Source: an uncultured euryarchaeote (GTDB lineage Archaea > Thermoplasmatota > Poseidoniia > Poseidoniales > Poseidoniaceae). From it: 60,677 bases of DNA. A program made the position numbers and the translations under genes. Shown here piece after piece: positions 9,060 to 43,774 of the stretch; position 1 is the stretch's first letter, and each line of letters begins with the position of its first letter. Location: NCBI GenBank assembly GCA_963991835.1, contig CAXDRT010000001.1, positions 1 through 60,677 on the forward strand, in the 5' to 3' direction. The notes beneath the pieces were generated by a model that saw only the letters and a program-made list of their open reading frames with translations, made no database searches and had not been told where the DNA came from.

Positions 9060-12000
9060 TCAGAATCGAGTACCTGAGCCGCCACGAGTTCGTGCCGCCT
9101 TGATACCGAAGTAAAGAATAATGATGATTAACGCTACAATTGCGACGAGAATCAATGAACTGTCTTCCTCATCCGACCCTTGTACAATGTATTCAATTCC
9201 GAAGTCCTCGTTTGGCAAATCACCAGTTGTAAAGTTTGCATCATCACCACTTACTTCGACTCGAACATCAAATCTCTCAATTCCTTGAGATGCTGCTGAC
9301 AAATTGAAGAGGAAGTCCTGTGAACCAAGAGCTGGAACAGAGAGAGTTTTGTTAAATTCCTGTCCGCTCGAAGGTGTTAGGAAGACGGTTACTTCGCTTG
9401 CTGAACGTAGGCCAGAGTTTTCAATAACAATCACGACATTGTTCGGATCTTTATCGGCGAAGGTATTACTTCTTGATTGAGTCTTATCTTCGTCGAATGA
9501 TAATGAAATTCTTGCGGATTCGATTGTAATTTCAACGTCTTGAGATTCACCATTTTCACTGCTAATTCGAACTGTCATGACTACTTCACCACTTTCGAAT
9601 GCTGTATCTGAGGAAACTGTAAATGCCAAATCTCGCATGTTACCCTTTGCAATGGTTGTAACATCGTTCATCGGACCAACAGTCCATCCTTCAGGAAGGT
9701 TGTCAAGTACTTCGTAGGTGAATGTATCATCACCGTTACCGTTGTTGTTTATCGTTAATCCTGCAGTAGTCACACCACCTGGCGATACACCCACAGTCTC
9801 GGTTACATCCGTAGTGTTGAACCCAAAGTATTGCGGAACTGCAACCTTGAGTGACACTTCAGTCATGTCTCCAGTATCTGCCATGAAGCGGACGTTCAAA
9901 GTGTGTCCATTATCGAGATGCCAAGCATCTTCAACCGACGGAAGATTGATTCTTGCTTGAACTGTTCCGTTCATTGTAGCATTTGCATCAACATCACCAA
10001 TACCGAGTGAGAGGTCAATTGAATCAACCCATGCACTGCCGTTGTAGAATTCAAGACTCCAATCAGCTTGGTCAGGTGAAACAGTCACTGTACCAGTAAC
10101 TGCGAAGGTATCCATAATTTCTGTTCCTTCGTATGTTGCAAGAACATCAAATTCAATGGTTGAGTAGTTCGCATCATCATCGGTCAAAATTGTGGCAGTC
10201 ATCTCTCTGTTTTCGTTTGTAAGGCCTGTAGCGTTTACGACATTGTTGACGCCGAGTGTAAGATCACTGTTGGTCTTTCTGTTGTATGAAAGCATAATTG
10301 AAGTTCGACCTTCATCTCCGTTCTCAATTGAGACTCCTGAACTGTAGTTCATTGTCAAGTCTCTTTGAACTGTTGTGAATTCGGAAGAGAACGAGGCTGA
10401 ACCTGATGGAAGTAAGACTTCAAGCGTACCATCTGAGTTGAGAGGCATGTTCCATACTTGTCCTTCACCAAGGTCGATTTCAACTTCCACAACAGATTGA
10501 ACTGGCGAAGAAGCGTTATCCGTACCTGCGTTGTATGGTTGCAAGTTGAATGCCGTGAATTGAGTATTGAGGTCAATCCAGCCACCCTTGCTCATAACAA
10601 GGTCAACTGTACCACCATCTTGTACTGCTGCATCGAGAATACCAATTGCAATTCCACCGCCGTTAAACGGAGCATCTGCTTCAGATACGACAACAACCCA
10701 TTGCCCTGGCTCGAGGGATTGAGTGAAGGTTAATTCATCTGCTGCATATGTACCTGTGACGTTAATCATTTCTTCTTGGTTTTCCGCAGTTCCGTAAAGA
10801 ACAATACTTGCACCATCAAGACGATCAGAATCGAGGATATCAGTGACACTTCCTGTAACGGATACTTGTGCAGCTGCCATTTCAATATCTTGTGACAGTG
10901 GCTCGCCTCCAACGACGTAGAATCCTGAATTGTTATCATCATAATTGACAACACCAAATCCATCCTTTGCTACAGAAACTGTGTAATTTTCAAGAATTGG
11001 TACATAGAGACTCCAAACACCGTTTTCATTGGTTTGGATGACTGTATCGAGACTTCCTCCTTGAATGGTTACGTTCGCACCTTCAACGCCTTCATTAGCA
11101 TCTCCTATGTCATCTTCGTTAACATCCCAGAATGCTTTCCCACCAATTTCGACTTCAAGATCGGCATAGACCATTCCTAGGCTTGTGTTTTCAGTAAGCG
11201 ATTGAGGGGAACTCGAAGTGTCGAGTGACCATACACGTTGTGCAGCAGTCTCGTTCATGAAGAGACTCCATGTACCAGGCATCAGCATTTGTGTAGCATT
11301 ACCATCAGCATCGGTTGGATTCATTGTAATGTTACCGAATCCGTCATGACTTACCAAGACAATTTCCTTTCCAATCAATGTTTGATTGGTACCAGATTCC
11401 ATGAGCGTGAGTGAGACCTCAACGGTTTCAATCATGCTCATATTGAGGTCGATTCGCTGCGAAGCATCAGAATCAACTGTGATTGGCATTCGCAATGATT
11501 CCATGATACCATCAGCGTTTAGCATAGGTGCTACGACAACAACATAGTCGCCTGTAGGGACATATTCAGCGAAGGTTCCGTTTGCATCAACATTCAATGG
11601 AACATATCCTGTTCCGTCAGCGGATGCAAGGAGAATGTTCTCGACCATTGCAGAGCCATTCATCCATGAAATAGTACCTGTAACTCTCCATTCATCAACG
11701 ATTGGAACAACGATGGCCTCTTCAGGTCCATTAAGTCCAATAGCGATAACATCGAGAACTCCATTGAATTCTAAGCTTGCATCCGATGCATTTTCATCAG
11801 CAGCATCGAGGTGATTGGTTTGAATTGCATAGATACCAGGACTTAGAACCGCTTCAACAATACCGTCTTCTGAATAATCAGAGGAGGTTAAGTTAACTTG
11901 CTCACCAATCTGTGATACTGGGATCAATTGAATATCTGGACGAATCGCAGTACCGTTCTCAAACACACTGTCGCCAAGGTCAGTGAAGACGTTGAGAACG

Positions 12001-27700: not shown

Positions 27701-28478
27701 ATAGTGGTTGACCGTTTGCTGCATCTGCAGACATGCAGTCAGTGACATCCGAGGACTGAACTTCTGATGATACAACGTGATAGAGAAGAATATCTGAGAG
27801 TGTCTGCTTACCAGTTGGATTATCCAGTGCGGCTAAATCAATACCTGCATCTGTAAATGCCTGGTCTGTTGGTGCAAACACTGTAAATGGTCCTGTTCCT
27901 TGGAGTGTTGGGAGCAAATCTGCCTGTATGACTGCTGCGACTAATGAATTGTGTATTCCAGTCGTTTGAGCAGTTGTTGGTATGTCGACAGGTGGAAGCA
28001 AAACGGTATCTATGACGTGTATGATTCCATTCGAGGCTTGAACATCTGCAGTCGTGACCGTTGCAGCACCGACGGTGACTGTTCCAGAATTAACTCCAAA
28101 CTTTACCTTGTCTCCGTTCACCATAGTAGCGAGCATACCATCAGTTACTGCGCTGGAAGGCACAGCACCAGACACGACGTGATGCAGTAAGATGTCGGAA
28201 AGGGTGGCATTTTCTTCAGGTGTGTCGAAATCATTGAGATCTATCCCAGCATCAGTAAATGCTTGATCTGTTGGTGCAAATACGGTAAATGGTCCCGTTC
28301 CTTGGAGCGTGGTTACGAGATTTGCATGCGTCAAGGCAGCCACAAGGGAGTTGTGGACGCCAGTTGCTGCAGCGTTTGTAGGGATGTCATCATTCGCATC
28401 AGCGCTCACGGAAAGAGGCAAAGTAGAGGCAATCAGTAGAGTAAGCGTCAGATAAACGAGGAGTTTCTTCATACCCAT
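24729..28478 (-). CDS. surface protein with eight tandem fasciclin (FAS1) domains, C-terminal TM anchor and W-rich tail
   Basis: 1249 aa. Signal peptide is LLVYLTLTLLIASTLPLSVSA. There are eight copies of the FAS1 signatures GPFT(V/L)FAPTDQAF and NG(I/V)IHVID(K/Q/T)VL. The TM is WLTYVLLFIAVVIVGVAVGLLY. The tail ends QQWTDDNGHTFRRMDDGSTFWWNGTDWQKYA. Confidence 0.9.
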   Translation of the reverse strand: MGMKKLLVYLTLTLLIASTLPLSVSADANDDIPTNAAATGVHNSLVAALTHANLVTTLQGTGPFTVFAPTDQAFTDAGIDLNDFDTPEENATLSDILLHHVVSGAVPSSAVTDGMLATMVNGDKVKFGVNSGTVTVGAATVTTADVQASNGIIHVIDTVLLPPVDIPTTAQTTGIHNSLVAAVIQADLLPTLQGTGPFTVFAPTDQAFTDAGIDLAALDNPTGKQTLSDILLYHVVSSEVQSSDVTDCMSADAANGQPLSFTVGNTVMVNDANVTLTDVVASNGLIHVIDKVLTPSDTPNDIPRTAQCTGVHDSLVAGVIQAELLSTLQGPGPFTVFAPTDQAFADAGIDLAALDTPEGKATLSDILLYHVVSGEVPSSAVTECLSATAVNGQSLSFTVGSGVMVNDANVTLADVSTSNGVIHVIDKVLTPTDTPNDIPRTAQCTGIHNSLVAGVIQAELLETLQGNGPFTVFAPTDQAFTDAGIDLASLDTPEGKAILSDILLYHVVAGNVPSSAVTECMSADAVNGQPLSFTVNGGVMVNGANVTLADVDTSNGVIHVIDKVLTPTDTPNDIPRTAQCTGVHNSLVAGVIQAELLPTLQGDGPFTVFAPTDQAFTDAGIDLAALDTVEGKAALTDILLYHVIAGEVPAANVTECLSATAVNGNPLSFTVGTNGVMVNDANVTATDVSTSNGIIHVIDKVLSPTDTPNDIPRTAQCTGIHDTLVTAVVQAELLETLQGPGPFTLFAPTDQAFIDAGIDLATLDTVEGKAALTDILLYHVVSGEVPSSAVTECMSATAVNGNTLSFTVGTNGVMVNDATVTLADVGTSNGVIHVIDKVLSPTDSPNNIPRTAQCTGIHDSLVAAVVQAELLETLQGEGPFTLFAPTDQAFADAGIDLAALDTVEGKANLTDILLYHVVSGEVPSSAVTECMSATAVNGQTLAFTVGDGVMVNGASVTLADVNTSNGIIHVIDKVLSPTDAPNNIPRTAECTGIHNSLVAAVIQAELLETLQGEGPFTLFAPTDQAFANAGIDLASLDTVEGKAILSDILLYHVHIGSLSSTEITEGMALQMANGDNTTLSLTTGINGANITSADVTTFNGIIHVIDQVLIPPVEENENTDGDATESSEDEETGWLTYVLLFIAVVIVGVAVGLLYTRRQGDGEVHETKEYAQGGIINQLQTIDPSSYVSQQTATPSYDSGYGQQAQAVQPVVAEPVALQQWTDDNGHTFRRMDDGSTFWWNGTDWQKYA
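25113..28376 (-). repeat. in-frame tandem repeat array, 8 units of 408-411 nt (FAS1 domains)
   Basis: The landmark CATTG(G/T)GC(T/A)GTTCG (with variants) recurs at 25510, 25918, 26329, 26740, 27148 and 27556, giving spacings of 408, 411, 411, 408 and 408 nt. Units 3-8 share long near-identical protein blocks (TPTDTPNDIPRTAQCTG(I/V)H(N/D)SLVAGVIQAELL). Confidence 0.85.
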
Positions 28479-30834: not shown

Positions 30835-30915
30835 TAACTCAAGCCACTATACCGACCCTCATAACCATTTTGCCGGGAAGTGTATGTTTGTAAGCAGAAT
30901 TGGGAAGGGAAAAAG

Positions 30916-30989
30916 TGGGCCCGAAGGGATTTGAACCCTTGACCGCCCGGTTATGAGCCGGGTGCTCTAACCAACTAAGCTACAGGCCC
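30916..30989 (-). tRNA. tRNA with CAT anticodon (elongator Met, or Ile2 if C34 is agmatidinylated); no encoded CCA
   Basis: The reverse complement folds as GGGCCTG TA GCTT AGTTGGTTA GAGC A CCCGG CTCATAA CCGGG CGGTC AAGGG TTCAAAT CCCTT CGGGCCC A. The cloverleaf is complete. G1-C72 argues against an archaeal initiator. Confidence 0.9.
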
Positions 30990-31014: not shown

Positions 31015-32322
31015 TCATGAGTCTGCCGAATCAAACATTGCCAAAGATGACTGCGAGGGCATTGTTTTTGAACGCACCAATGCTTCACACTCATCACGAA
31101 TCTCTTGAGGAACGAAAACTAAGATCTGCTCATAGGATTGGGAAAGAGAACGAATGAGTGGTGAGTGCTCTGCTGCATCTCTTCCATCTTCAAGAATAAT
31201 CCCTTGCTCATAAGGCATGTAACCTCTTTTCCGAATTGAGGCAGTAATGAGATCATGTTCTGGATCAAATCCCGCGGCTTCTATGAATGCAGCAACCTCG
31301 GATTGTATGACATGAAACATCTCGGAAGTGAGTGAAGCGATTCGTAGTGATTTATGATAATCTCTACGGGCCATTAATCGAGAGGCATAATTGGAAAGGA
31401 TTACATCTGAATTTCTTGAGAAACGGCTCATGGCTACCTTCACGTGCGAATCATGAAGTTCAGCATACTGTTCAGCAGTGAGCGCTTCATTGAGCAACAT
31501 GTTTTCCACCTCCACGCCTAGGCTAAGTTTGCCCTGAGAGGCAAGAGTCCTAGCACGAGATAACATCCGCACGAGATAGGCTTGTGTTAGCATGTTTACT
31601 TTGTGGAAGTATACTTGATTGTACATATGATAACGCGTAACGAGATAGGCTTCAATTGCAGGCAGGCCCCATGATTTGACATAGAGGCGCCCTTGATCGT
31701 TTACTCTCATCGCTCGGATAACTCTGGCACTGTCAAATCCACCAATTTGGGCGCCAGTATTAGCCTGATCACGTATCATGTAATCCATTCTATCAACGTC
31801 TAATTGACTGCTTATGATTTCTTTCAAGAACGGTGCAATTGGCACGCCATCACATTCGCTCGCTCCATCTAGTATCGAAAAGAGGCGTTTTTTTCTCTCC
31901 TTCCCAAGGACTTCATCCAGCACTTGGCCGATTTCAGAGGAGGTGTCCTCCAGCATGACTCTGCCCCAGTGTTCATGGGAATGATATGTAGCAAAGACAT
32001 CTGGGGTTTCTAAAAGATGAGAATATGGAGGGTGTCCAATGTCATGAAGGAGAGCTCCTAATCGAACCAATTCTGCGTCATCATTCGACAATAATCCTGG
32101 TTGAACTTCTTGTAGGGAATCAGTCAACGCCCCTGCAAGATGATAGGCGCCGAGAGAATGGGCGAATCGTGTGTGAGTAGCAGAAGGGAATACAAATTCA
32201 CATGTTGAGAGTTGTTGCACGTTACGTAATCTCTGAATTTCATGTGTATCGATGATTCTGGCATGATGTGCAGGCACCAAGATATCACGATGAATTTCAT
32301 CGCGGATAACTCTGTCTCGCAT
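31015..32322 (-). CDS. HD-domain phosphohydrolase (dNTP triphosphohydrolase / SAMHD1-like, COG1078-type)
   Basis: 435 aa. The motifs are RFAHSLGAYHLA, LLHDIGHPPYSH and DVDRMDYMIRD. Confidence 0.85.
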   Translation of the reverse strand: MRDRVIRDEIHRDILVPAHHARIIDTHEIQRLRNVQQLSTCEFVFPSATHTRFAHSLGAYHLAGALTDSLQEVQPGLLSNDDAELVRLGALLHDIGHPPYSHLLETPDVFATYHSHEHWGRVMLEDTSSEIGQVLDEVLGKERKKRLFSILDGASECDGVPIAPFLKEIISSQLDVDRMDYMIRDQANTGAQIGGFDSARVIRAMRVNDQGRLYVKSWGLPAIEAYLVTRYHMYNQVYFHKVNMLTQAYLVRMLSRARTLASQGKLSLGVEVENMLLNEALTAEQYAELHDSHVKVAMSRFSRNSDVILSNYASRLMARRDYHKSLRIASLTSEMFHVIQSEVAAFIEAAGFDPEHDLITASIRKRGYMPYEQGIILEDGRDAAEHSPLIRSLSQSYEQILVFVPQEIRDECEALVRSKTMPSQSSLAMFDSADS

Positions 32323-32413: not shown

Positions 32414-34156
32414 ATGGCGGATGGTCTGAAGTCCTTTCTCGCTCGATTATCGACAGATGACCCCGAAACGAACGGACCCCGATTATGGGTCATGTTCGCC
32501 ATATCCCTCTTCTTGGTAGCCACGCTTAATTGGTATGCAATGGTTCGTGAACCATCGGTAGTCGAAATCGATGACTTGACAGAATACATCAACGAAGTGG
32601 TTAAAGTTGAAGGTACATTGATTTCTTGGGTTGAAGACCCCTACAATTCAGGAGATGATCGTCTTGATGCAATCATTGACGATGGTACTGGTGTTGTTGA
32701 ATTACGATGGTACCGGCCAGGAGACACCCCCCCAATCGGAACCAATGTTACAATCATAGGGGATGTCATCAATTACGAAGGAAGAATGTGGATACAAGCA
32801 CTTGGAGCGGGAGCTATGAGTTGGAAATCCTCAGACATCCCAGATGTACCTTGGTTAGCAATCTCAGATGTCGCAATTGATCCAGAAAAATTTGATGGAG
32901 AAATCGTTCAACTCACTGGGTTCATCTCGAAATCCATCGCTCCTGATGTGGCTTTTGGAAGCGCTAAACTCGGAGACCACCCCAATTATGGAAACTCTGA
33001 GCATCAAATCAGTATGACGATTCACTCTTCAACAGGACAGTGGATTGAAGCGGGCTCCAAAGTCACTGTTCAAGGTGTATTGTCCTATCAACAACGTGAA
33101 TTAAGTTGGAATCTAGGGGTTCAAGGGCCTGAAATTATGGTAGATCGAAATCATCCAATTGAGATTCCTTTGCTCGATTGGTCATCGCAATCAACATGGA
33201 TGTATCAATCTGGAAGGACCGTTGATGTCGCAGGTATGCTATCCATCGAAAACAGCACATGGGAGTTAACTGGTTCAGCAGGTTCACCACTATGTGTCAT
33301 ACCAAGTGAAGATGATGTATCGATGGCTGAAACATGGGAAGGAAAAGCAATCAAAATGCGAGGCCGACTCGTTTGGAATACTGCAATCTCATCTTGGTGC
33401 CTCGACAAGGGTGGTGAAGACAGTGAGTCTCTTACAGCCACATCCACGATAAACGATCTGCTCTTGATGCTCAGTGCAAACCCAATTGCTGCACTTAGTG
33501 ACCCAGACACTCATTACACGGTTGCAGCCTACATGAAGTACGCTGTTGAACCAAGTGTTGAAGATGAATCTGGTTACTTTGCAGACTCCGCTGGCTACAC
33601 ACCTGGTTGGACCAGTATTGCAGTAACTATTCCTGGACCTCGATCCACTTGGCTCGAGGCAGGTCAGTCAGTGATTGCAGATGTTACTGTTTCTTGGGAC
33701 GATGAAAATATGCGTGCAGAATTATTAATTCATGACCTTACAGAAGGCGATAAAATGAATCCAACAACACTCCTCTGGTCTGATGGGGCAACACAGTGGG
33801 GCTATGATAAAAACAAAGTTGTCCGATTAAACGGTCTTGCTATTGAAGAAAACGGGACGTGGTTCCTTTCCGAACCAGGAAGTGAAAAGAAGGTACGACT
33901 GAATGCTCTTGGAAACTCAATTGGTCTCGATGAACTCCACCTTGGAACGGCAATGACATGGGAAGGTCGTTTGCTTCAAGTCGAAGACAGTAAATCGATG
34001 GCAGTCATTTATTCATTGGAAAGTGCAGATGTTGATGACAGAGATAACGATGGACTAAGTGACACTCTTGAAAATGCATTTGGAACGAGTTCTTATTCAG
34101 AAGATTCCAATGGTGACGGGACCAGCGATCGTCAAGAATACATTGACCAACAGTAA
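32414..34156 (+). CDS. N-terminally anchored surface protein with four beta-barrel (possibly OB-fold-like) repeats and C-terminal thrombospondin type 3-like Ca-binding repeats
   Basis: 580 aa. The TM is LWVMFAISLFLVATLNWYAMV. Four similar modules recur (VVKVEGTLISWVED..., IVQLTGFISKSI..., GRTVDVAGMLSIENSTWELTG..., VVRLNGLAIEENGTWFLSE...). The C-terminus is DVDDRDNDGLSDTLENAF...DSNGDGTSDRQEY. The OB-fold call is weak and pattern-based. Confidence 0.5.
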   Translation: MADGLKSFLARLSTDDPETNGPRLWVMFAISLFLVATLNWYAMVREPSVVEIDDLTEYINEVVKVEGTLISWVEDPYNSGDDRLDAIIDDGTGVVELRWYRPGDTPPIGTNVTIIGDVINYEGRMWIQALGAGAMSWKSSDIPDVPWLAISDVAIDPEKFDGEIVQLTGFISKSIAPDVAFGSAKLGDHPNYGNSEHQISMTIHSSTGQWIEAGSKVTVQGVLSYQQRELSWNLGVQGPEIMVDRNHPIEIPLLDWSSQSTWMYQSGRTVDVAGMLSIENSTWELTGSAGSPLCVIPSEDDVSMAETWEGKAIKMRGRLVWNTAISSWCLDKGGEDSESLTATSTINDLLLMLSANPIAALSDPDTHYTVAAYMKYAVEPSVEDESGYFADSAGYTPGWTSIAVTIPGPRSTWLEAGQSVIADVTVSWDDENMRAELLIHDLTEGDKMNPTTLLWSDGATQWGYDKNKVVRLNGLAIEENGTWFLSEPGSEKKVRLNALGNSIGLDELHLGTAMTWEGRLLQVEDSKSMAVIYSLESADVDDRDNDGLSDTLENAFGTSSYSEDSNGDGTSDRQEYIDQQ

Positions 34157-34168
34157 TGGGGTGAACAG

Positions 34169-35671
34169 ATGATTGAAGCGTATTTCACTGATTTATGGTG
34201 GCTCCTAGGAGCCCTGTTCTTCGGTGTTTTCATGGGTTCTTTGACAGGACTCATTCCAGGTTTTCACGTCAACAATGTTGCTTTAATTCTGCTCGCATTA
34301 TCCCCTGCTCTTCTCGATTTAGGAATTCCACTTTCGGCAGTTGCTGCAATTATCGTTTCGACAGGAACGGTCCATACCTTCCTCAATTACATCCCTTCCG
34401 CACTTATTGGCGCACCTGATGGTGATACTGCGTTATCGCTTTTGCCTGGGCATAGGATGTTGTTAGCAGGTAATGCTGCACGTGGTGTTGCATGGTCAGC
34501 AAGAGGATCCCAACTTGGCCTCTTTCTTTCATTACCCCTCATCATCGTTGCAAGAATCGCATTCGGGCCTGAACTCAATTGGTATGACGGTATGCGAAGT
34601 TGGTTACCAGTGATTTTACTAACGATTTCTCTTCTCCTTCTCGCAACTGAAACGACTCGCCTCGATTGGCCGAAATGGGTTCAGAAACTTACATGGAAGA
34701 AACTTGGGAAGGATAGTCGCTTGGCAGGATTTTTTGCAGCAACGATCTTTTTCCTGCTTGCGGGATTGTATGGATGGGCAGTATTCGAACTTCCAGTTGA
34801 CAGCCCTGTAGGAATGCCTTCTCCATCCCTGCTTCTACCCAGTCTTGCAGGATTGTTTGGAATAGCAAATTTACTGGATATTTATGCCACAACAAGTCAC
34901 TTACCACCTCAACGTGAGAATTGGGACTTACCGCCTGTAAAACCTCTCATCGCTCCATGCTTCTGGTCAGCAGTAGCTGGGGCAAGTATGGGTGTATTAC
35001 CTGGAATGACTGCATCACAAGCAACAGTTTTGGTGATGGGTGGAAGAAACGTTGCGGCAAAGGTCCAAGGAAAAGAGGGGTATGGAATGGACTGGGAAAC
35101 CCGTCGCTTAACTGAACTTTCTGATGATGAGTTACTCGAAATCGCAATCGCAGAAGCTGAAGGCGGTCATGAAGGACCTCAAACCAAACAAGATTTGGAA
35201 GTCATTGCGATTCTCTCTGCAGTCAATACAGCAGTCACGGTCATGGTTCTTGGTTTCCTTTACATCATTGGAAGATCTCGTTCAGGTGCAACACTTGCTC
35301 TGAAAATGATGTATCCTATCGAAACATGGAATTCTACTGAACCCACAGCAGATTTCATCCGGTTACTCGCTGTTTGTCTCGCTGCTGGAATCATGGCAAT
35401 GCCGATTATGAAAATTGTCGGTAAAGGTATGTTGCGACTGCACGCTGCAATTCCATTGCAATCAATGGTCATGGGCGTCATTATTTTCGTTGCTGCTCTG
35501 GTTTGGCTTTCGACAGGTTTCGTTGGGATAGGGGTTCTCATTGTTGGGACCATCCTCGGAATGATGCCTCCGAGAATAGGCATACGCAGAAGCCACGGAA
35601 TGGGAATTATTCTTGTCCCAATTATGATTTACACATTCGCACAAATGGCTGATAACTTTGGATTCATCTGA
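34169..35671 (+). CDS. polytopic membrane protein, DUF112/TctA-family-like permease
   Basis: 500 aa with ~11-12 TM segments. The N-terminal GSLTGLIPGFHVNNVALILLAL resembles the TctA/DUF112 signature. A central hydrophilic insert reads ELSDDELLEIAIAEAEGGHEG. Confidence 0.5.
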   Translation: MIEAYFTDLWWLLGALFFGVFMGSLTGLIPGFHVNNVALILLALSPALLDLGIPLSAVAAIIVSTGTVHTFLNYIPSALIGAPDGDTALSLLPGHRMLLAGNAARGVAWSARGSQLGLFLSLPLIIVARIAFGPELNWYDGMRSWLPVILLTISLLLLATETTRLDWPKWVQKLTWKKLGKDSRLAGFFAATIFFLLAGLYGWAVFELPVDSPVGMPSPSLLLPSLAGLFGIANLLDIYATTSHLPPQRENWDLPPVKPLIAPCFWSAVAGASMGVLPGMTASQATVLVMGGRNVAAKVQGKEGYGMDWETRRLTELSDDELLEIAIAEAEGGHEGPQTKQDLEVIAILSAVNTAVTVMVLGFLYIIGRSRSGATLALKMMYPIETWNSTEPTADFIRLLAVCLAAGIMAMPIMKIVGKGMLRLHAAIPLQSMVMGVIIFVAALVWLSTGFVGIGVLIVGTILGMMPPRIGIRRSHGMGIILVPIMIYTFAQMADNFGFI

Positions 35672-35701
35672 TTTAGAGGAAAATACACCTCGCCAAAAGA
35701 T

Positions 35702-38700
35702 ATGAGGGGGATGACGTTAGGTGGACTTGTAGGTGACACCATGCGCGGCCAATCATACCTTTTACTCGCACTTCTTTTACTCGTACCATTCACACCATTT
35801 GTTGAACCTGTAGAGTCCACATCTGCTCGCAGTCAACCATGCGCTGGTGCTGTTTGTATCAACGAAGCATTGCCCAATCCAAACGGTCTTGATGATGCAA
35901 CCTATCCTGGCGGAGAATGGCTTGAAATCTACAACTCTGGAACAACAAGTGTTGATGTTCGTAACTGGTATTTTTCCAACAAGGCCTCAAAGACACTCAC
36001 TTTCGATGTAAACAGCATTGTAGACTATGATGCAAATAATGCTTCGACATATACAATTGCTCCAGGAGAATATATGGTCATCGCTCGAAACGGATATACC
36101 AATTTCTATGTCGCTAATTCAAATGATTTCATGACCCTCTACGATGGATCTGGGAATTGGATTGATGAAGCAACATGGAACTCCAGTTCATCTGGAGTCA
36201 GCCTTGAACAAGACCCATCCGATCCCTATGCTGATTGGATACCGACTTCAAATCCGACTCCAGGTTCTTCGAATACTGGAGGAGGAAGCACAGGACCTAC
36301 GTTTTACCCTAGCGAATTACAAATTAATGAGGTTATGGCAGATTCATGGCCAAGTCGAGATAATGCCTCTTGGCCAGGTGGCGAATGGGTAGAGTTGTAC
36401 AATAACGGAACTTCAACCATCAACATGTCTGGCTGGTGGTTGCAGGACCAAGCAGGTAACATGATTGAAATGGATTCAACCCACCTTGTAGGGGCAACCT
36501 CAGATTATGCGACCCACCTGATTTATCCTGGTGAAACACGAATTGTAGCAGTAAATGCAACATCGAGCAGTGGCGTGTTAAACAACGGCCAAGAAACTTT
36601 ACGTCTTTACCTTCCAAATGGAAGTATTGGAGATGAAGTCAGTTGGACAAGCAATGAGCCTGGATTTTCCATTGAGGAAAACCCTCTTGGCGGAATGTGG
36701 GTGATCTCAACATATCCAACACCAAATTCGACAAATATACCTCCTCTTGACACAATTTCAGCCACTGGATCTGTCGGATTCAATGAAATTATGCCAGTTT
36801 CTAATCATGATGGGAACGCATCACCTGAAGGTGAATGGATTGAATTATTGAATACTGGTACAACTGATATCGACCTCAATGGGTGGTCGATTATTGATGG
36901 AATGGGCAACCAAACATTCCTCGATCCAGGTTCAATTGCGGTCAACAGTTCTCAAGGAAGTACGACCATTCTCTCTGGAGAACGCAGGCTGATTGAATTT
37001 ACCACAGACACTCGTCTCTGGGACAATTACAACCATCTTATCTTACTCGACGCTTCATCGATGATTGTTGATGTAGCTTGGTACGCCACCAACTACGGAC
37101 CAAACATCTCTCTTCTCCGAAGCACAAACTACAATGATGCATGGTCTCCATCACTGTATCCAACACCTGGACAACCAGAACCAATTCCGACTGCAACAAC
37201 AGGTGATATTCGTATCACAGAACTACTCGCAGATGCTGTTGGTTCTGACTCTGAATCATACCCTGGTGGCGAATGGATTGAAATCCACAACTTTGGTTCT
37301 TCTGAAGTTGACGTTGCTGGATGGAGATTCTCAGCAGCAAATCGAAATCTGATGTTGCATCAATACAACATGCCAATGAAATCAACCACTATTCTAGCGC
37401 CTGGTGAAACAACTCTTATCGCACTCAATGGCACATCTCAATTCTACCTAAAACACACCACGCCTGATCAGATAAATCTCATTGATGGAAATGGAGCAAT
37501 CGCTCACTCAGCTCAATGGACAAGCACTCTGGAAGGAGGTTCGCTTATCAACAATACAGAAACGCATGCAGGTGCTGGACAATCTGGCCTCAATGCCCCA
37601 TCAACATCCCTCACATGGGGAGTAGATGATTGGGTCAACAGTGCATGGGCAACACCAGGAACTGCTAATCCAATATGGCCTGAATATACCAATTCTGAGT
37701 CGATCGTAATTACAGAAATTGCTTCATCATGTGACGACTCAACTTTCTCACCGGGTGCTGATTGGATTGAACTCCACAACACAGGCATAGAAAACATCAA
37801 CCTAAGTCGTTGGAGAGTGAGCGTGGATTACACCTCGAACCCACTCATGGGCCGACAATTTATCGATTCAACCATGCTCTGGAATCACGGAGAAAACAAT
37901 ACCACAGTTGAATCAGGTCAGCGAATTGTTGTTGAATTGACCTACGATATCTTCGGAGGTTCTCTTGAAGACAGTGGTGTTCTTGAAATTCTCAATCCCG
38001 ATGGAGAACTTGTTACAAGCGCAGCACCATCATCTGAATTCCTTGCAAGTAATTGTGTGACGTATGGATACAATGAAACAAATTCAGAATGGGTTGAGTT
38101 TGCATGGCCTACTCCTGGAACTGAAGAACCGGATGCTACAATGATTGCATCTCAGGATTCGATCAAGTTTACATCTGTCATGTGGGATGGTATCTCATCG
38201 ATTTCCACGGAATTAGAATTCTTCGAACTTACCAATAACGGAGAAGAAGCAGCAACACTCAGTGGCTGGAAAATTAAACGAACGGCCGCTGATAATACAG
38301 AATACACTGCTGATATCACGAATCTACAGATTGATGCAGGGTCTTCAGTAAAACTAACCAATGACGTCTCCGCTCTTACCTTGTATGAGGATGGAACAAT
38401 TCTCGACATGAATACTGTCATGAGTTCACCAATTTACCTTCTTGATAGCGGTATGGCATTGCAACTCATCCACCCAACCGGAGCAGTCGCGGATACCATC
38501 GTCTACGGCAATGGTCCTGTGGATGCGATTGGATGGTCAGGAGTTGCTTTATCAGAGCCAGTAAGCGGAATTGATAATCTGATTCTGTACAGAGGCGATG
38601 GGTGTGGAACAATCACCGATACCAACCAATCTGTTGATTGGCATCAACGATGGGGACGCCTTGGAGCAAGCGATTTCTGCACAGACCTTACGTTTTCAGA

Positions 38701-40633
38701 TGCAACGATGATTCAACCTCTTCTTGGACCTCATGATGGTCTTGTGGATGTACTCGCATGGGTTGGCCAAGCGCAAACTTCTCTCCACCTTCATCTGTAC
38801 CAACTCCAATCAATGGATCTTACTCAGGCCCTTATTGATGCACACGAACGAGGCGTTGCAGTCGTTGTTGTTCTCAATGAAGTCGAATCATGGTGGAATA
38901 CCAATGATCGAGAATCTCAAGCATCTTATGCATACCTTCTCAAGGAAGCTGGAGTCGATGTATTTTGGTTTGGAGGAAGCGGCGATGACCCTTACCTCTA
39001 CCTTCACGCTAAAGTTGCAGTTCAAGATGAGGCGTCCGTTTGGATAGGCTCAGGAAATTGGAAGGATGCATCACTCCCTCCACCAGGCCAACGTGGCAAC
39101 AGGGATTGGAGTATGATCGTACAAAGCCAAGAACTTGCTCAGACTGTTTTGGAGCACATGGCCTTTGATGAAAATTCAATGTATGTTTTACCAGTATCAT
39201 CGACTCCTCCAACCAACAGTTATTCCGTACCTGATGTGCGAACAATCGTAGGAGATTCTGCTCCACAATACACTGGAACATACTCTGGCACCCTTCTCAC
39301 ATGCCCTGATGATTGTGTCGAAGGTTTAACCAGCATGATTGAAAGCGCTAACAGTGAAATTTTACTCTCATTGCAATATCTTGATCTTGATTGGCAATGG
39401 GGATGGGGTGAAAACCCAGTCGTAAGTGCACTCGAAGATGCTGCACAGCGAGATGTTTCAATACGTCTTATCATCAATGGAGCATATCTTGATGAAGATA
39501 TCCAAGACATTGTTGACAGAATGAATAACGATTGGAATCAAACCAATGGATGGGATGTTTCTGCAATCATCATGAGTGAAGATGACGATGTATCTAAACT
39601 ACACAACAAAGGAGCAATCGTCGATGGTACATCTGTCCTCATTTCAAGCATCAACTGGGGTGATTCAGCCATGGTTCGTAACCGAGAAATGGGATTGATT
39701 ATCGATTCTACTGAGATTGCTACACCATACATCAATTCATGGTATGCTGATTGGAATCGACTTGACAACGTAACCGATACCGACAACGATGGTTTACCTG
39801 ATATCTGGGAAGTTGGAAACGGACTAAACAGAACAATCGCAATGTTTGGCACCATTCTCGAGGCTGATATCGATGTCGATGGAGACACACTCTCAAATTA
39901 CGACGAATACATCTTGGGAGGAAATCCGCTCTCTGTAGACACGGATGGAGATTGTATTATGGATCAGATTGAAGTCGCTTGGGCACAAACAACTGCATTA
40001 GATTCTGAAGTTACTGACGTGTCTCCATACGATGCAATCAACATGGCTGATGCTAATGGAGATGGAATCAATGAAGCCGATGCATTAGGTTGCGATCTTG
40101 GTGGTATCACTCCAGAACCAACTGGTAACGAAACCAATGACACTGGAAATGACTCACCTGATGACGACAATGACGGTGTTTTGGATGTTGACGATGATTG
40201 TCCCGATACATTGCCAGACACACCAACAGACATTGATGGATGTTCACTCTCACAACTCAATCAAAACGCTGGTGATTCCAGTGGAGAGGCTGATGAAGGC
40301 ATGGGTGCAACGTTCATGTTATTGTTGATGCTTGGTGGAGCGCTCTTACTTATTGGTGCAGCGAACGGAATTATTCAATCGCGTAAGGAAAAATCCGAAG
40401 TTAAGGATTGGGTTGCGGAAGAAGAATTGAATGCAGTTATCGGTTCTTCTGAATCATGGGATCAACCTGTTCTTGATGGTCAAGCCTCTGATAATCAGAG
40501 TGGATTATCGACTCAAGACCTTGCACGCTTCCCCGGATGGGATAAAGCAATGATAGAGAAGTATTTGGAGATGGGATGGAGTCTTGACCAATTAGAAGAA
40601 TACTATCTAGAACAGAAGTCTGAACATGCTTGA
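35702..40633 (+). CDS. surface-anchored 6x lamin-tail-domain (LTD) + phospholipase D-superfamily (2x HKD) enzyme with TSP3 repeats and C-terminal TM
   Basis: 1643 aa. The signal peptide starts at the internal Met (MRGQSYLLLALLLLVPF, ~35741). Six LTD signatures are present (CINEALPNPNG..GEWLEIYNSGTTSVDVRNWYF; LQINEVMAD..GEWVELYNNGTSTINMSGWWL; GFNEIMP..GEWIELLNTGTTDIDLNGWSI; ITELLAD..GEWIEIHNFGSSEVDVAGWRF; ITEIASS..ADWIELHNTGIENINLSRWRV; FTSVMWD..EFFELTNNGEEAATLSGWKI). HKD motif 1 is LHAKVAVQDEASVWIGSGNW (His codon 39005-39007) and HKD motif 2 is LHNKGAIVDGTSVLISSINW (His codon 39602-39604). TSP3-like repeats include DTDNDGLPD, DVDGDTLSNYDE, DTDGDCIMD and DDDNDGVLDVDDDCPD. The TM lies at ~40301-40375. 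Confidence 0.85.
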   Translation: MRGMTLGGLVGDTMRGQSYLLLALLLLVPFTPFVEPVESTSARSQPCAGAVCINEALPNPNGLDDATYPGGEWLEIYNSGTTSVDVRNWYFSNKASKTLTFDVNSIVDYDANNASTYTIAPGEYMVIARNGYTNFYVANSNDFMTLYDGSGNWIDEATWNSSSSGVSLEQDPSDPYADWIPTSNPTPGSSNTGGGSTGPTFYPSELQINEVMADSWPSRDNASWPGGEWVELYNNGTSTINMSGWWLQDQAGNMIEMDSTHLVGATSDYATHLIYPGETRIVAVNATSSSGVLNNGQETLRLYLPNGSIGDEVSWTSNEPGFSIEENPLGGMWVISTYPTPNSTNIPPLDTISATGSVGFNEIMPVSNHDGNASPEGEWIELLNTGTTDIDLNGWSIIDGMGNQTFLDPGSIAVNSSQGSTTILSGERRLIEFTTDTRLWDNYNHLILLDASSMIVDVAWYATNYGPNISLLRSTNYNDAWSPSLYPTPGQPEPIPTATTGDIRITELLADAVGSDSESYPGGEWIEIHNFGSSEVDVAGWRFSAANRNLMLHQYNMPMKSTTILAPGETTLIALNGTSQFYLKHTTPDQINLIDGNGAIAHSAQWTSTLEGGSLINNTETHAGAGQSGLNAPSTSLTWGVDDWVNSAWATPGTANPIWPEYTNSESIVITEIASSCDDSTFSPGADWIELHNTGIENINLSRWRVSVDYTSNPLMGRQFIDSTMLWNHGENNTTVESGQRIVVELTYDIFGGSLEDSGVLEILNPDGELVTSAAPSSEFLASNCVTYGYNETNSEWVEFAWPTPGTEEPDATMIASQDSIKFTSVMWDGISSISTELEFFELTNNGEEAATLSGWKIKRTAADNTEYTADITNLQIDAGSSVKLTNDVSALTLYEDGTILDMNTVMSSPIYLLDSGMALQLIHPTGAVADTIVYGNGPVDAIGWSGVALSEPVSGIDNLILYRGDGCGTITDTNQSVDWHQRWGRLGASDFCTDLTFSDATMIQPLLGPHDGLVDVLAWVGQAQTSLHLHLYQLQSMDLTQALIDAHERGVAVVVVLNEVESWWNTNDRESQASYAYLLKEAGVDVFWFGGSGDDPYLYLHAKVAVQDEASVWIGSGNWKDASLPPPGQRGNRDWSMIVQSQELAQTVLEHMAFDENSMYVLPVSSTPPTNSYSVPDVRTIVGDSAPQYTGTYSGTLLTCPDDCVEGLTSMIESANSEILLSLQYLDLDWQWGWGENPVVSALEDAAQRDVSIRLIINGAYLDEDIQDIVDRMNNDWNQTNGWDVSAIIMSEDDDVSKLHNKGAIVDGTSVLISSINWGDSAMVRNREMGLIIDSTEIATPYINSWYADWNRLDNVTDTDNDGLPDIWEVGNGLNRTIAMFGTILEADIDVDGDTLSNYDEYILGGNPLSVDTDGDCIMDQIEVAWAQTTALDSEVTDVSPYDAINMADANGDGINEADALGCDLGGITPEPTGNETNDTGNDSPDDDNDGVLDVDDDCPDTLPDTPTDIDGCSLSQLNQNAGDSSGEADEGMGATFMLLLMLGGALLLIGAANGIIQSRKEKSEVKDWVAEEELNAVIGSSESWDQPVLDGQASDNQSGLSTQDLARFPGWDKAMIEKYLEMGWSLDQLEEYYLEQKSEHA

Positions 40634-41408
40634 GACACGTAACCTTGACAAAGGACCACACTCAGGCAAAGTCATGGCTTACACTTCAAGTAACCCCGTA
40701 TTCCAACCAAAATTTTGGAATACAATCTCTGGAAACGACCGAATGACATTCGAAGGAACATTACAAAAAATAGGTATTCTCTTCGCATTGATGACCATAT
40801 CTGCCCTTGGAACTGTTGCCCTTGGATTCGCTGTACCTGGACTGCTGTACCCAATGATGATATTTGGTATGGTCGGAACATTTGGAATGGGCCTTTGGCT
40901 CGTGTTTTCACGCCCATCCAACCCCCAAGTACCAGTCATGATCTATGCTTTTATGGAAGGATTCTTCATTGGACCACTCACCCTTGTGTTCGAGATAATG
41001 TATCCTGGAATTGCTATACAAGCAGGCCTTGCAACACTAGGAGTCATTGGTGCAATGTTGACAATTTATTCATTACGAATTATACGCCCTACGCCAACAT
41101 TCAACAAGATTGTATTCTCACTAACAATGTCGATTATGTTCGTTTACCTGATAAACGTCGTATTCATGTTTACACCTTATGAACTTCCATTCTTCCATTC
41201 AAGTGGGCCAATTGGAATCGGGATTAGTGTATTCATTATTGTTGTTGCATCCCTCATGCTGATCTCCAACTTTGGAATGATCGAGGCTGGTGTACGCATG
41301 GGTGCTCCGAAACAGCAGGAGTGGTGGGGCGCTTACGGAATTCTCATTACAGTCATCTGGTTGTACTTTGAAATGCTACGATTGCTCGCTAAACTACGTA
41401 GTGACTAG
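40626..41408 (+). CDS. Bax inhibitor-1/YccA family membrane protein
   Basis: 7-TM protein. The N-terminus MAYTSSNPVFQP is typical of the family, which makes ATG 40674 the likely true start. The tracked start at 40626 would overlap the upstream gene by 8 nt. Confidence 0.7.
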   Translation: MLETRNLDKGPHSGKVMAYTSSNPVFQPKFWNTISGNDRMTFEGTLQKIGILFALMTISALGTVALGFAVPGLLYPMMIFGMVGTFGMGLWLVFSRPSNPQVPVMIYAFMEGFFIGPLTLVFEIMYPGIAIQAGLATLGVIGAMLTIYSLRIIRPTPTFNKIVFSLTMSIMFVYLINVVFMFTPYELPFFHSSGPIGIGISVFIIVVASLMLISNFGMIEAGVRMGAPKQQEWWGAYGILITVIWLYFEMLRLLAKLRSD

Positions 41409-41410
41409 GG

Positions 41411-42373
41411 GTGAAACCTTTGTCAAGACCATTACCTGTAGCGGATTTACAAGATTTCCTATCAGGTGATGAAGACCGTCGTATGGCCTTTATCCAAGCG
41501 GTTGGAGAATCCCTCTCCGACATTGGATTCTTTGCACTGATTAATCACGGAATTGATCTCAACCATATTGAGGACACATACGAACAAGCAGAGTATTTCT
41601 TTGACCTTGATGAAGAAACAAAGCGAATGTATTTGCGTCCAGAAATTTCACATCAAAGAGGATATACCGCATTTGGGATTGAGCATGCAAAGAACAATCC
41701 TGCTCCTGATTTGAAAGAATTCTGGCAAACAGGAAGAGGTAATCAAGGCAGTAAAACAGACCTCACATATCCCGCAAACATTTGGCCAGGCAAGCATTTA
41801 CCTGATTTTGAAAAGAATGTTGATTCACTTTACAATAAGATGGAAGAAATATCAACCATGCTTCTCAGTGCATGCAGCACATATCTTGGTCATGATGAAA
41901 CATGGCTTCCAGAAATGGCAAGAGAAGGAAACACAATCATGAGAATCATCCATTATCCTCCTCTTGATGAATCTACACCTGAAGGAGCGGTGCGTTCTGC
42001 AGCTCACGAAGACATCAATCTGATTACCTTACTAATGACTGCAACTGCCGCAGGTTTACAGGTCATGGATCATGATGGGACATGGATTGATGTTGAAGGC
42101 AACCATGAGCAGATTATCGTCGATTCAGGCGATATGATTCAGAACCTGACAAATGGTCTTTTCAAATCAACAACACACAGAGTTGTCAATCCTGGTGATT
42201 CGACTCAGAGACGATTTTCTATGCCAATGTTCGTTCATCCAAGGAACGAAATTGACCTAACGCCCCTCGAAGAATTTGTTTCACAAACAGGGGGCGTCGT
42301 CTCTTATCCATCCATCAAAGCAGGAGAGTATCTTCATCAACGCCTCGTTGAGATCGGGTTAGCATCGAAGTGA
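41411..42373 (+). CDS. 2-oxoglutarate/Fe(II)-dependent oxygenase (isopenicillin N synthase-like family)
   Basis: 320 aa. It has a DIOX_N-like N-terminus (LPVADLQDF...GFFALINHGI), the HxD facial triad in AAHEDINLITLL, the distal His in TTHRV, and RxS in RRFSMPMF. Confidence 0.85.
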   Translation: MKPLSRPLPVADLQDFLSGDEDRRMAFIQAVGESLSDIGFFALINHGIDLNHIEDTYEQAEYFFDLDEETKRMYLRPEISHQRGYTAFGIEHAKNNPAPDLKEFWQTGRGNQGSKTDLTYPANIWPGKHLPDFEKNVDSLYNKMEEISTMLLSACSTYLGHDETWLPEMAREGNTIMRIIHYPPLDESTPEGAVRSAAHEDINLITLLMTATAAGLQVMDHDGTWIDVEGNHEQIIVDSGDMIQNLTNGLFKSTTHRVVNPGDSTQRRFSMPMFVHPRNEIDLTPLEEFVSQTGGVVSYPSIKAGEYLHQRLVEIGLASK

Positions 42374-42382
42374 GTTGATCTC

Positions 42383-43648
42383 ATGCACATCCCTACATTA
42401 CTCGCTAAGAAAAGAGATGGGGACATTCTCTCTCAACAAGAACTCTCTTGGTTTATTGCCAATCTTTCAGAAATTCCCAATGAGCAAATAGGAGCCTTCT
42501 TAATGGCATGTCAAATCAACGGACTGAATTCTGATGAGACATACCATTTGACTACATCCATGCTTGAAAGTGGTGAATCACTCCCCCTTAATCCAACATC
42601 TGTTGACAAACATTCAACAGGAGGAGTGGGTGATAAGATGAGCATTATTCTAGCCCCAGCACTTCGAGCATGTGGAGCGACAGTACCGATGCTTGCGGGT
42701 AGAGGATTAGCCCACACTGGCGGAACCATCGATAAACTCGAATCAATACCTGGCTTCGATACTGGATTGAGTATCGAAGTGATGAAAGAAAATCCCTGCT
42801 TTATTTCAAGGCAGACAAATGAAATTGCACCAGCAGATTCCATTCTTTATGCCATTCGGGACGTAACTGCTACTGTCCCATGTATTGGTTTAATCACAGC
42901 TTCAATATTATCAAAGAAGGCCGCAGAAGGAATTCATTCGCTTGTACTTGATGTCAAATACGGAAGAGCTGCATTTATGCAGCATTCTGAAAAAGCAAGA
43001 GAATTAGCTGTATCTATGGTTCAAGTTGGTACACAACTCGGCATTCAAGTCACTGCACAATTAACTCAAATGGACCACCCACTAGGCAATTGGCTAGGGA
43101 ATAGTCACGAAATCTACGAATCAATTCAGTGCTTGAAAGGAATCGGTCCAGAAGATACAATGGAATTGGTTGCTGCTCAAGCAAATGCACTTGGGTTTGA
43201 TATTGACGAAGTTATTCGTAACGGTTCTGCATTGACTGAATTTAAGGATATGATGATTCGACAAGGTGTTGATCCTGATGTCGCAGATACGCTCCTCCAT
43301 GATCCTTGGAGCGTTTTGCCAAGAGCCCCTCAACAGTATGTCCTCATGGCTGAACAAAATGGTAACATCGCTGATATTGACGCACTGGTCATAGGCCAAG
43401 TTCTCTGTGAAGCAGGTGCTGGCCGTTCCCAACAGGGTCAAGAAATTGATCATGGAATCGGAATTCAATTGCATAAAAAAGTCTCTGATAATGTAGAAGA
43501 AGGAGATCCAATAATGACACTTGATGCAGACTATGGCTTCGACATGCACCTTTTACAGCGATTAAAGGATTCGATTAAAATCAGCGAATATCAAGTAAAA
43601 GACGGTTTACGAGTCCTCGAAACCATCACGATTGAGAACTGTTCGTAG
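42383..43648 (+). CDS. deoA: thymidine/pyrimidine-nucleoside phosphorylase
   Basis: 421 aa. It carries the DKHSTGGVGDK signature, and the length and layout fit the bacterial-type DeoA/Pdp rather than the longer AMP phosphorylase. Confidence 0.9.
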   Translation: MHIPTLLAKKRDGDILSQQELSWFIANLSEIPNEQIGAFLMACQINGLNSDETYHLTTSMLESGESLPLNPTSVDKHSTGGVGDKMSIILAPALRACGATVPMLAGRGLAHTGGTIDKLESIPGFDTGLSIEVMKENPCFISRQTNEIAPADSILYAIRDVTATVPCIGLITASILSKKAAEGIHSLVLDVKYGRAAFMQHSEKARELAVSMVQVGTQLGIQVTAQLTQMDHPLGNWLGNSHEIYESIQCLKGIGPEDTMELVAAQANALGFDIDEVIRNGSALTEFKDMMIRQGVDPDVADTLLHDPWSVLPRAPQQYVLMAEQNGNIADIDALVIGQVLCEAGAGRSQQGQEIDHGIGIQLHKKVSDNVEEGDPIMTLDADYGFDMHLLQRLKDSIKISEYQVKDGLRVLETITIENCS

Positions 43649-43698: not shown

Positions 43699-43774
43699 GC
43701 CGATTTAGCTTAGCTGGTGGAGCGTGGGACTGTTAATCCCAAGGTCGTGGGTTCGAGCCCCACAATCGGCGCCA
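43699..43774 (+). tRNA. tRNA-Asn (GTT), CCA encoded
   Basis: Folds as GCCGATT TA GCTT AGCTGGTG GAGC G TGGGA CTGTTAA TCCCA AGGTC GTGGG TTCGAGC CCCAC AATCGGC G CCA. The cloverleaf is complete. The encoded CCA abuts the guaA-B stop codon. Confidence 0.92.

Follow-up and report, generated by a model that had tools for sequence, protein, structure and literature searches.

The six co-directional genes g1 to g6 of an uncultured euryarchaeote of the family Poseidoniaceae (Marine Group IIa, MGIIa) lie at positions 32414-43648 of a 60,677-nucleotide stretch of contig CAXDRT010000001.1, referred to here as the window, and contain at their core a gene for a large surface protein, g3, and a thymidine phosphorylase gene, g6 (deoA), which are linked throughout the order Poseidoniales. 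The g3 protein combines six lamin-tail domains (LTDs) with a two-HKD phospholipase D (PLD) module. Across the order the cluster consists of two linked modules, a core module B of g3 and g6 and a module A of g1 and g2. The reading that we favour, and to which we give an even chance of being correct, is a breakdown of extracellular nucleic acid at the cell surface that is centred on the LTD-PLD protein and coupled to the phosphorolysis of thymidine or pyrimidine nucleosides in the cytoplasm, with g1 and g2 as the probable capture and uptake partners of g3. An earlier annotation made from the sequence alone (the first-pass annotation) had proposed a DNA-capture and pyrimidine-salvage operon of six tightly spaced genes; the positions of the genes are as it gave them, and the proposal holds as the best reading for the g3-deoA core, but a six-gene operon is not supported. 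The domains that it named in g2 to g6 (a DUF112/TctA-like permease, a surface enzyme with six LTDs and a two-HKD PLD module, a BI-1/YccA membrane protein, a 2-oxoglutarate (2OG)/Fe(II) oxygenase and a thymidine phosphorylase) and in the HD gene upstream were all matched by Pfam or NCBIfam models.

Linkage of g3 and deoA across the Poseidoniales

Gene order was compared in 164 related loci from GTDB genomes and metagenomes, onto which the window proteins were mapped by tblastn. deoA follows g3 in all 133 assessable loci, by way of g4 and g5 in 120, by way of g5 alone in three and directly in ten, and the g1-g2 pair precedes g3 in 115 of the 118 loci where this could be assessed. Of the fully assessable loci, 86 have the complete set of six genes in order, and those of them that carry a taxon name all belong to the Poseidoniaceae or Poseidoniales. 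The conserved six-gene order that the first-pass annotation had put forward as a check is seen within this group and does not extend to divergent lineages: g4 and g5 are missing from the ten divergent loci with deoA directly after g3, MGIIb among them, three loci lack g4, and g1-g2 is separable from g3.

Seven loci of the Marine Group II (MGII) subgroup b type (MGIIb) have the order g1-g2-g3-g6, without g4 or g5, and encode g3 proteins with 35-37% identity to that of the window; the MGIIb locus L157 belongs to the Thalassarchaeaceae, as identified through the cluster members MDG1541807.1 and MDG1541809.1 (at least 90% identical). A third lineage (L085-L087) keeps g3-g6 downstream of genes for a thiolase, a glutamate synthase and an Lrp regulator, with g2 about 9 kb away, and in L087 the flanks on both sides of g3-deoA are unrelated. 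In L084, g3-g6 is also kept, a phosphate-uptake cluster replaces g1-g2 upstream, and other genes lie downstream. The g1-g2 pair is detached from g3 in L084, L087 and L102. Where g4 and g5 are missing, deoA starts 2-31 nt after the g3 stop codon, and a GAGG or GGAGGT site is often present. The two genes overlap by 5 nt in SIMO Bin 19-2, from a published table of MGIIb metagenome-assembled genomes (MAGs).

The robust associations are those of g3 with deoA and of g1 with g2, the latter pair usually lying next to g3. The genes g4 and g5 are lineage-specific and not part of the core: g4 is missing in L101, L104, L156 and all MGIIb-type loci, and g5 is found in MGIIa lineages only and is missing from MGIIb-type loci. 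The six genes cannot be regarded as one unit, as had been assumed, given that MGIIb and other divergent lineages lack g4 and g5 and that g1-g2 is split off by insertions and rearrangements; the proposed link between g3 and thymidine phosphorylase, on the other hand, extends across the whole order. Synteny within the Poseidoniaceae was rejected as proof of a unit, since the flanks (two unknown genes, tRNA-Met, HD, guaA-C and purE) are as syntenic as the six genes themselves, and gene order inside this family therefore proves little.

Phosphate-uptake genes adjoin g3 in six contigs of a single Poseidoniaceae sub-clade, in which g3 is 44-46% identical to that of the window, and this adjacency ties g3 to phosphorus acquisition. 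A gene for a PHO4-PhoU_div phosphate transporter immediately precedes g3, with the same orientation, in L084, L098, L102, L108 and L155 (PHO4 identities of 76-100%), and a PstS gene takes its place in L083. In L102, g2 and g3 are separated by inserted PhoU and PHO4 genes. The types of phosphate gene in the sub-clade comprise the PHO4-PhoU_div fusion, PhoU, PstS and PstC/A-like genes.

The junction between deoA and guaA is an insertion hotspot, with inserts of 1.5-4 kb (L003, L053, L059, L077 and others), and the insert in L003 and L004 encodes a collagen-repeat protein. Contig L049 (CAXQWT010000029.1), filed as part of a MAG of the alphaproteobacterium 'Salipiger bermudensis', carries g3-g4-g5-g6-guaA-purE with 70-95% identity and is probably a mis-binned Poseidoniaceae contig.

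Proteins encoded by the cluster

The g3 protein is a type-I surface protein of 1643 amino acids (aa), composed of a signal peptide, the six LTDs, the PLD module (aa ~985-1357), TSP3-like calcium-binding repeats, a transmembrane (TM) helix (aa ~1536-1562) and a cytoplasmic tail. Pfam matches LTD over six stretches (1.7e-75) and PLDc_2 over two (3.3e-38). The first HKD motif, LHAKVAVQD...GSGN (H1102, K1104, D1109 and N1119), and the second, LHNKGAIVD...SSIN (H1301, K1303, D1308 and N1318), are invariant in 14 orthologues of 45-88% identity, and together they supply the two HxK(x4)D(x6)G[S/G]xN motifs, forming one active site, by which the PLD superfamily is recognised.

A single-sequence phmmer search of the PDB with g3 found only Zucchini/MitoPLD, Nuc and NucT, and a search with a profile of the g3 family gave Nuc (3.6e-13), NucT (7.5e-9) and Zucchini (2e-8) as the sole significant matches, with a bacterial phospholipase reaching just 5.5e-3; Cls, PssA, PLD1/2 and Streptomyces PLD appeared in neither search. 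With the NCBIfam model of ClsB, g3 reaches 27 bits (cut-off 281), and these results together place g3 outside the Cls, Pss and classical PLD families. The HKD domains of g3 are closest in sequence to the nucleases Nuc, NucT and Zucchini, and an activity of this type is predicted. In a Foldseek comparison of the AlphaFold (AF2) model of the PLD module (pTM 0.87), the PLD3/PLD4 exonucleases of single-stranded DNA (ssDNA) matched at ~1e-19 and PLD1/2, PssA and Streptomyces PLD at ~1e-17. A clustering of the PLD domain with Cls, Pss or true phospholipases, which the first-pass annotation had named as grounds for refutation, is thus not seen at the level of sequence, whereas the fold does not decide. 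The best NCBIfam match of g3 is to DrmC, at 82 bits against a cut-off of 133; a role in a defence system was rejected on this score and on the secretion and surface anchoring of g3.

The cytoplasmic tail of about 80 residues (aa 1563-1643, window 40388-40630) has no Pfam match at E<=10 beyond a weak TSP3 repeat but contains invariant P-V-L, G-W, Y, G-W, L, Y-Y and Q residues, and this conservation suggests an intracellular partner or a signalling role. A library-wide search returned 3151 relatives of the PLD module. Among distant relatives (~30% identity), 37 of 46 carry LTDs too, often with PKD or CARDB domains; the named LTD-PLD relatives are from Thermoplasmata, Syntrophoarchaeia and Asgard archaea, and a search seeded by a Thermoplasmata LTD-PLD member also reached proteins of Halobacteria. 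From this distribution, LTD-PLD is an old, widespread and uncharacterised architecture of archaeal surface enzymes. Other Thermoplasmata encode short LTD-PLD proteins of 647-868 aa that share 38-66% identity with the query P0275; in L165-L168 (gene from position 6001) the gene lies in a context conserved in all four loci, with a triosephosphate isomerase (TIM) gene upstream and a gene for a Cas4-like PD-(D/E)XK nuclease directly downstream.

The g1 protein possesses an N-terminal TM helix (aa ~22-44), a series of barrels (aa ~58-135, 160-240, 265-335, 365-450 and 465-541) and a TSP3-like acidic calcium-binding motif at the C-terminus. In the AF2 model (25 homologues in the alignment, pLDDT 82), the barrels are OB-like and show the five-stranded closed beta-barrel of the OB fold. 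A surface protein with beta-barrel repeats had been predicted, and the barrels are indeed modelled, although their number is five and not four. No Pfam family matches g1, even at E<=10, beyond a weak TSP3 repeat, and its homologues are confined to the Poseidoniales, every one of them named 'hypothetical'. The best structural matches of g1 in a Foldseek search of the PDB are tandem-OB DNA binders, led by HIN-200 with double-stranded DNA (dsDNA; 2e-10) and followed by RPA70, RADX, POT1, CST and LEF-3 (probability 1.0), and judging from the model g1 may bind nucleic acid. The g1 barrels are all acidic (pI 4.1-5.1).

The g2 protein is a polytopic membrane protein of the TctA family (PF01970, 1.5e-44, 152.8 bits against a cut-off of 28.9; COG1784/arCOG04469) and is the most conserved in the cluster, with 73-99% identity across the Poseidoniaceae. 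A sequence search of the PDB with g2 found no relatives, and no TctB or TctC is encoded among the window open reading frames (ORFs) of at least 120 aa. The spacer between g1 and g2 has a median of 9 nt, and a GAGGTGA-type Shine-Dalgarno site is present in 109 of 114 unique junctions, by which the two genes are predicted to be a translationally coupled pair. The g2 permease may import DNA breakdown products, a role that the first-pass annotation proposed and that is not supported by the present results.

The g4 protein is a BI-1-like membrane protein (BaxI_1, PF12811, 1.3e-59) for which a sequence search of the PDB found no relatives, and g5 is an IPNS-type Fe(II)/2OG oxygenase that matches the Pfam families DIOX_N and 2OG-FeII_Oxy. 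The g6 protein contains the three domains of DeoA (Glycos_trans_3N, Glycos_transf_3 and PYNP_C) and exceeds the cut-off of the thymidine phosphorylase model NF004490 (412.3 bits against 269), whereas it scores 188 against a cut-off of 535 with the model of archaeal AMP phosphorylase. Its score with the pyrimidine-nucleoside phosphorylase (PyNP) model TIGR02644 is 406.4 bits, just under the cut-off of 409.05, and g6 is assigned by its domains and scores as a cytoplasmic DeoA-type thymidine/pyrimidine-nucleoside phosphorylase.

Competing explanations and known systems

In the favoured reading, the target of g3 would be extracellular nucleic acid, most probably DNA, which it would cleave at the cell surface, where six LTDs would hold out a Nuc-like two-HKD phosphodiesterase and the C-terminal helix would anchor the protein, and g1 may help to hold the polymer or the oligonucleotide products. 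The products would be dephosphorylated by enzymes encoded elsewhere and then taken up, possibly through g2, the dephosphorylation and transport steps apparently being missing from the cluster, and g6 would split thymidine into thymine and deoxyribose-1-phosphate. The gain would be phosphorus plus carbon, nitrogen and pyrimidines. In MGIIa, g4 and g5 would have been added between g3 and g6. The genes of the cluster are presumably co-expressed.

Several findings weigh against this reading. The ectodomains of g1 and g3 have a pI of ~4 and net charges of -56 and -185, respectively, which makes the binding of a polyanion unfavourable unless Mg or Ca ions bridge the two. With g3, every NCBIfam nuclease model falls far short of its cut-off (30-56 bits for the NucT models, against 211-351), and these curated models therefore do not place g3 in the Nuc/NucT family. 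Zucchini was originally described as a cardiolipin hydrolase. Comparison of folds was discarded as a means of splitting nuclease from phospholipase, given that both classes fall within 1e-19 to 5e-17. The window contains no 5'-nucleotidase, nucleoside transporter, deoB or deoC gene, and deoA does not occur near the LTD-PLD genes of L165-L168. The wider region from HD to guaA and purE is loosely syntenic between MGIIa and MGIIb, so that part of the g3-deoA adjacency is inherited, and g4 and g5 intervene between g3 and deoA in MGIIa lineages and not in others, so that this adjacency has been broken or restored at least once. The genes of SIMO Bin 19-2 are listed by Damashek et al. (Table S3, the single published metatranscriptome table for MGII) with transcript coverage of ~0, which is uninformative.

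It is possible, though unlikely, that the neighbourhood is conserved without functional coupling, unrelated genes being kept together by the strong synteny of the Poseidoniales and by short, operon-like spacing that resists rearrangement. Flanking housekeeping genes are equally ordered in every Poseidoniaceae locus, HD, guaA-C and purE remain nearby in MGIIb, g4 and g5 come and go, and the LTD-PLD genes of other Thermoplasmata have a different and equally conserved context; however, g3 and deoA stay paired in two independently rearranged contexts (L087 and L084), are nearly contiguous or overlapping in MGIIb-type loci, and have phosphate-uptake genes beside g3 in several contigs of one sub-clade. 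We regard it as distinctly unlikely that g3 is instead a true phospholipase D or a lipid head-group phosphodiesterase that acts on algal or bacterial debris, with the proximity of deoA being incidental. A lipid substrate leaves the tightly coupled deoA and the tandem-OB partner unexplained, cleavage of phospholipids by PLD frees no phosphate and so leaves the adjacency of phosphate genes unexplained, and searches by sequence and profile give only the Nuc, NucT and Zucchini type. The arguments for a lipid substrate, which would fit the proposed degradation of lipids and proteins by MGII, are that Foldseek ranks the bacterial phospholipase D 7e0m first and places PLD1/2, PssA and Streptomyces PLD no more than two orders of magnitude behind it, that public annotations read 'cardiolipin synthase B' or 'PLD-like', that a membrane-directing role has also been proposed for LTDs (PMC6085458), and that MGII are thought to use lipids (PMC9723583).

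Other explanations give g1, g2 or g5 a larger part. Competence-like DNA uptake, with g1 as an OB receptor, g2 as a conduit and g3 as a nuclease that converts dsDNA, in the manner of ComEA, ComEC and EndA, is very improbable: TctA-family proteins are secondary carriers of small anions, none of which is known to pass polymers, an ATPase, a pilus or a ComEC-like domain is lacking from the window, the barrels of g1 are acidic, and deoA suggests catabolism and not recombination. This holds even though g1 resembles tandem-OB binders of ssDNA and dsDNA, the predicted coupled pair g1-g2 lies before g3 in nearly all loci, and g2 is so highly conserved. There is a slim chance that g1-g2 represents a new type of uptake system in which the penta-OB ectoprotein replaces TctC as the receptor for a TctA-family permease and hands it oligonucleotides, nucleotides or even ssDNA made by the LTD-PLD nuclease; if so, it would be a route of nucleic-acid entry into archaea without ComEC or pili. 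We attach a similarly small likelihood to an MGIIa add-on in which g5 resembles thymine-7-hydroxylase (T7H) and, with deoA, would convert thymidine to thymine and 5-carboxyuracil and on towards uracil, as in fungal thymidine salvage. Among solved proteins of characterised function, the one nearest to g5 is thymine dioxygenase (1.9e-28), a gap of 9 nt separates g5 from deoA and many lineages have a Shine-Dalgarno-like site at this junction, and the Fe and 2OG ligands are conserved along with the equivalents of Arg190 and Phe292. Such a conserved Arg and Phe are, however, common to the IPNS/DOXC family generally. They are two of the six substrate contacts of T7H (Phe292, Tyr217, Arg190, Asn87, Glu122 and Asn294; PMC4787775), and in g5 the other four are replaced (Tyr217 by Ile202, Asn87 by Gln, Glu122 by Gln and Asn294 by His). 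The identification of g5 as T7H was rejected, as the residue mapping does not support it and two uncharacterised bacterial proteins, 3oox (9e-54) and 3on7, are much closer; iso-orotate decarboxylase was not found in the window, and g5 is missing from MGIIb.

The closest solved relatives of the g3 HKD domains, Nuc (Salmonella pKM101), NucT (Helicobacter) and Zucchini, share the same HxK(x4)D...GSxN chemistry, have 155-204 residues in their solved chains and carry one HKD motif each. They act as homodimers. In g3, by contrast, two HKD domains are fused into a pseudo-dimer, like that of PLD3/PLD4, within a 1643-aa surface protein. PLD3 and PLD4 are type-II membrane-anchored luminal (lysosomal) 5' exonucleases that degrade ssDNA, and their two-HKD single-chain fold is among the top Foldseek matches of g3 (TM-score ~0.65), but they are absent from the sequence-profile matches and classical phospholipases match the fold nearly as well. 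The g2 permease shares its family with TctABC systems; here TctB and TctC are lacking and the coupled extracytoplasmic partner is the penta-OB g1.

By analogy, the cluster is best read as a surface nuclease scavenging type comparable to ExeM and Hvo_1477, with a PLD-family catalytic domain. LTDs accompany surface phosphoesterases and nucleases, and ExeM consists of an LTD, an OB domain, an EEP nuclease and a C-terminal anchor (PMC6085458). The ExeM/Xds enzymes of Shewanella and Vibrio resemble the present system in their signal peptide, LTD, OB modules, phosphodiesterase domain and C-terminal TM anchor (PMC6085458), and in being tethered outside the cytoplasmic membrane. They differ in that g3 has six LTDs and not one, that the OB folds are here on the separate, membrane-anchored g1, that the host is an archaeon, and that the genes are linked to deoA, a TctA-family permease and, in one sub-clade, phosphate transporters; g3 also falls outside the ExeM/NucH type (LTD, EEP or SNase, OB and anchor), the two-HKD PLD module replacing the EEP or SNase domain. 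Hvo_1477 of Haloferax volcanii is likewise an archaeal, membrane-bound putative nuclease containing an LTD (PMC3929857), but this small lipoprotein combines a staphylococcal-nuclease domain with a single LTD and has no PLD module, OB partner or reported linkage to deoA (PMC3929857).

MGII are abundant, uncultured and ecologically weighty archaea of the ocean, and studies of their genomes point mainly to proteins and lipids as their diet. In the literature searched, no paper links MGII or Poseidoniales with lamin-tail domains or thymidine phosphorylase or describes the cluster, and the main MGII genomics and transcriptomics papers make no mention of nucleases, phospholipases, TctA or nucleosides. 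Both families of Poseidoniales have a conserved surface phosphodiesterase that is predicted to be of the nuclease type. If the favoured reading of surface nucleic-acid breakdown is true, dissolved DNA, a large pool of organic phosphorus, would join the MGII diet, and the archaeal LTD-PLD architecture and the stand-alone archaeal TctA (COG1784) would gain their first functional context. The gene set also offers a concrete marker for metatranscriptomic and stable-isotope probing studies.

Gene layout, junctions and other features of the window

The annotated gaps between g1 and g6 are, in order, 12, 30, -8, 2 and 9 nt (Table 1). Comparison of the junctions across lineages places the true start of g4 most likely at 40674, which changes the third gap to 40 nt. 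The true start of g3 is most likely M14 (35741), which follows an AGGTGA Shine-Dalgarno-like site common to related lineages and gives a g2-g3 spacer of 69 nt; the annotated ATG (35702) falls within a conserved spacer element. Median spacers over unique junctions are 69 nt for g2-g3, 40 nt for g3-g4, -2 nt for g4-g5 and 9 nt for g5-g6, and a Shine-Dalgarno-like site is present in 57 of 104 unique g5-g6 junctions and in 3 of 115 g4-g5 junctions.

The element in the g2-g3 spacer, CCAAAAGATATGAGGGGGA, is kept in lineages whose g2 is 92-99% identical to that of the window, and other lineages have GATATGCCCCTTGAC, a different conserved element, at this position. The motif of the g3-g4 spacer, AACCTTGACAAAGGACC, is conserved across lineages whose g3 proteins are just 44-94% identical, and a degenerate form occurs in 80 of 125 unique g3-g4 spacers, compared with 0.6% of 63-nt windows drawn at random from these loci; the motif is a candidate promoter for g4-g5-g6 or may be the site of a regulator. 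The greater length of these two spacers and their conserved motifs point to possible internal promoters, and more than one promoter may drive transcription of the block. Scans for sigma-70 promoters and intrinsic terminators, which are ill-suited to an archaeon, gave counts at shuffle expectation.

Table 1. Coordinates of the features discussed (window positions unless a locus is named)
Feature	Position	Strand	Remark
g1	32414-34156	+	ORF call
g2	34169-35671	+	ORF call
g3	35702-40633	+	ORF call
g4	40626-41408	+	ORF call
g5	41411-42373	+	ORF call
g6	42383-43648	+	ORF call
Conserved non-coding element CCAAAAGATATGAGGGGGA	35693-35711	+	g2-g3 spacer; possible internal promoter or regulatory site
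Conserved non-coding motif AACCTTGACAAAGGACC	40641-40657	+	g3-g4 spacer, ~25 nt upstream of the g4 ATG
HD-domain dNTP-triphosphohydrolase-like gene	31015-32322	-	Divergent from g1; Pfam HD and HD_assoc_2
tRNA-Met	30915-30989	-	ARAGORN, Rfam; brackets the region upstream
tRNA-Asn	43699-43774	+	ARAGORN, Rfam; downstream boundary of the co-directional block
Phosphate genes	L084:4682-9905; L102:1224-4499; L098:2-1684; L108:2-1123; L155:3-620; L083:408-1508		Co-directional with g3
deoA-guaA insert	L003:18424-20895		
STT3/AglB-domain ORF	9060-18644	-	3194 aa
Fasciclin-domain protein	24729-28478	-	1249 aa
STAND-type NTPase	752-3274	-	840 aa

The best solved relatives of the HD protein are the HD-domain protein 2o6i (2.1e-45) and SAMHD1 (1e-25). 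Its gene adjoins the cluster in MGIIa loci and lies about 5 kb away in the MGIIb locus L157, and it is only a local syntenic neighbour of the cluster. A stand-alone GuaA C-terminal subunit (NCBIfam) is encoded downstream of the cluster, consistent with an archaeal host, and the names given to homologues of g3 and g1 assign the window to the Poseidoniaceae (MGIIa).

Three other regions of the window encode large proteins. The STT3/AglB oligosaccharyltransferase domain of the 3194-aa ORF spans aa ~383-1021; a very large additional region, with CarboxypepD_reg and SpaA-like domains among its parts, makes the protein unusually large for an AglB. A second protein consists of eight fasciclin domains (Pfam 3.6e-230) and presumably functions in surface adhesion. 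The STAND-type NTPase (AAA_16/nSTAND) has an N-terminal HTH and C-terminal TPR repeats, and its gene neighbours those of a 1445-aa beta-helix/Big_7 surface protein and an S8 subtilase.

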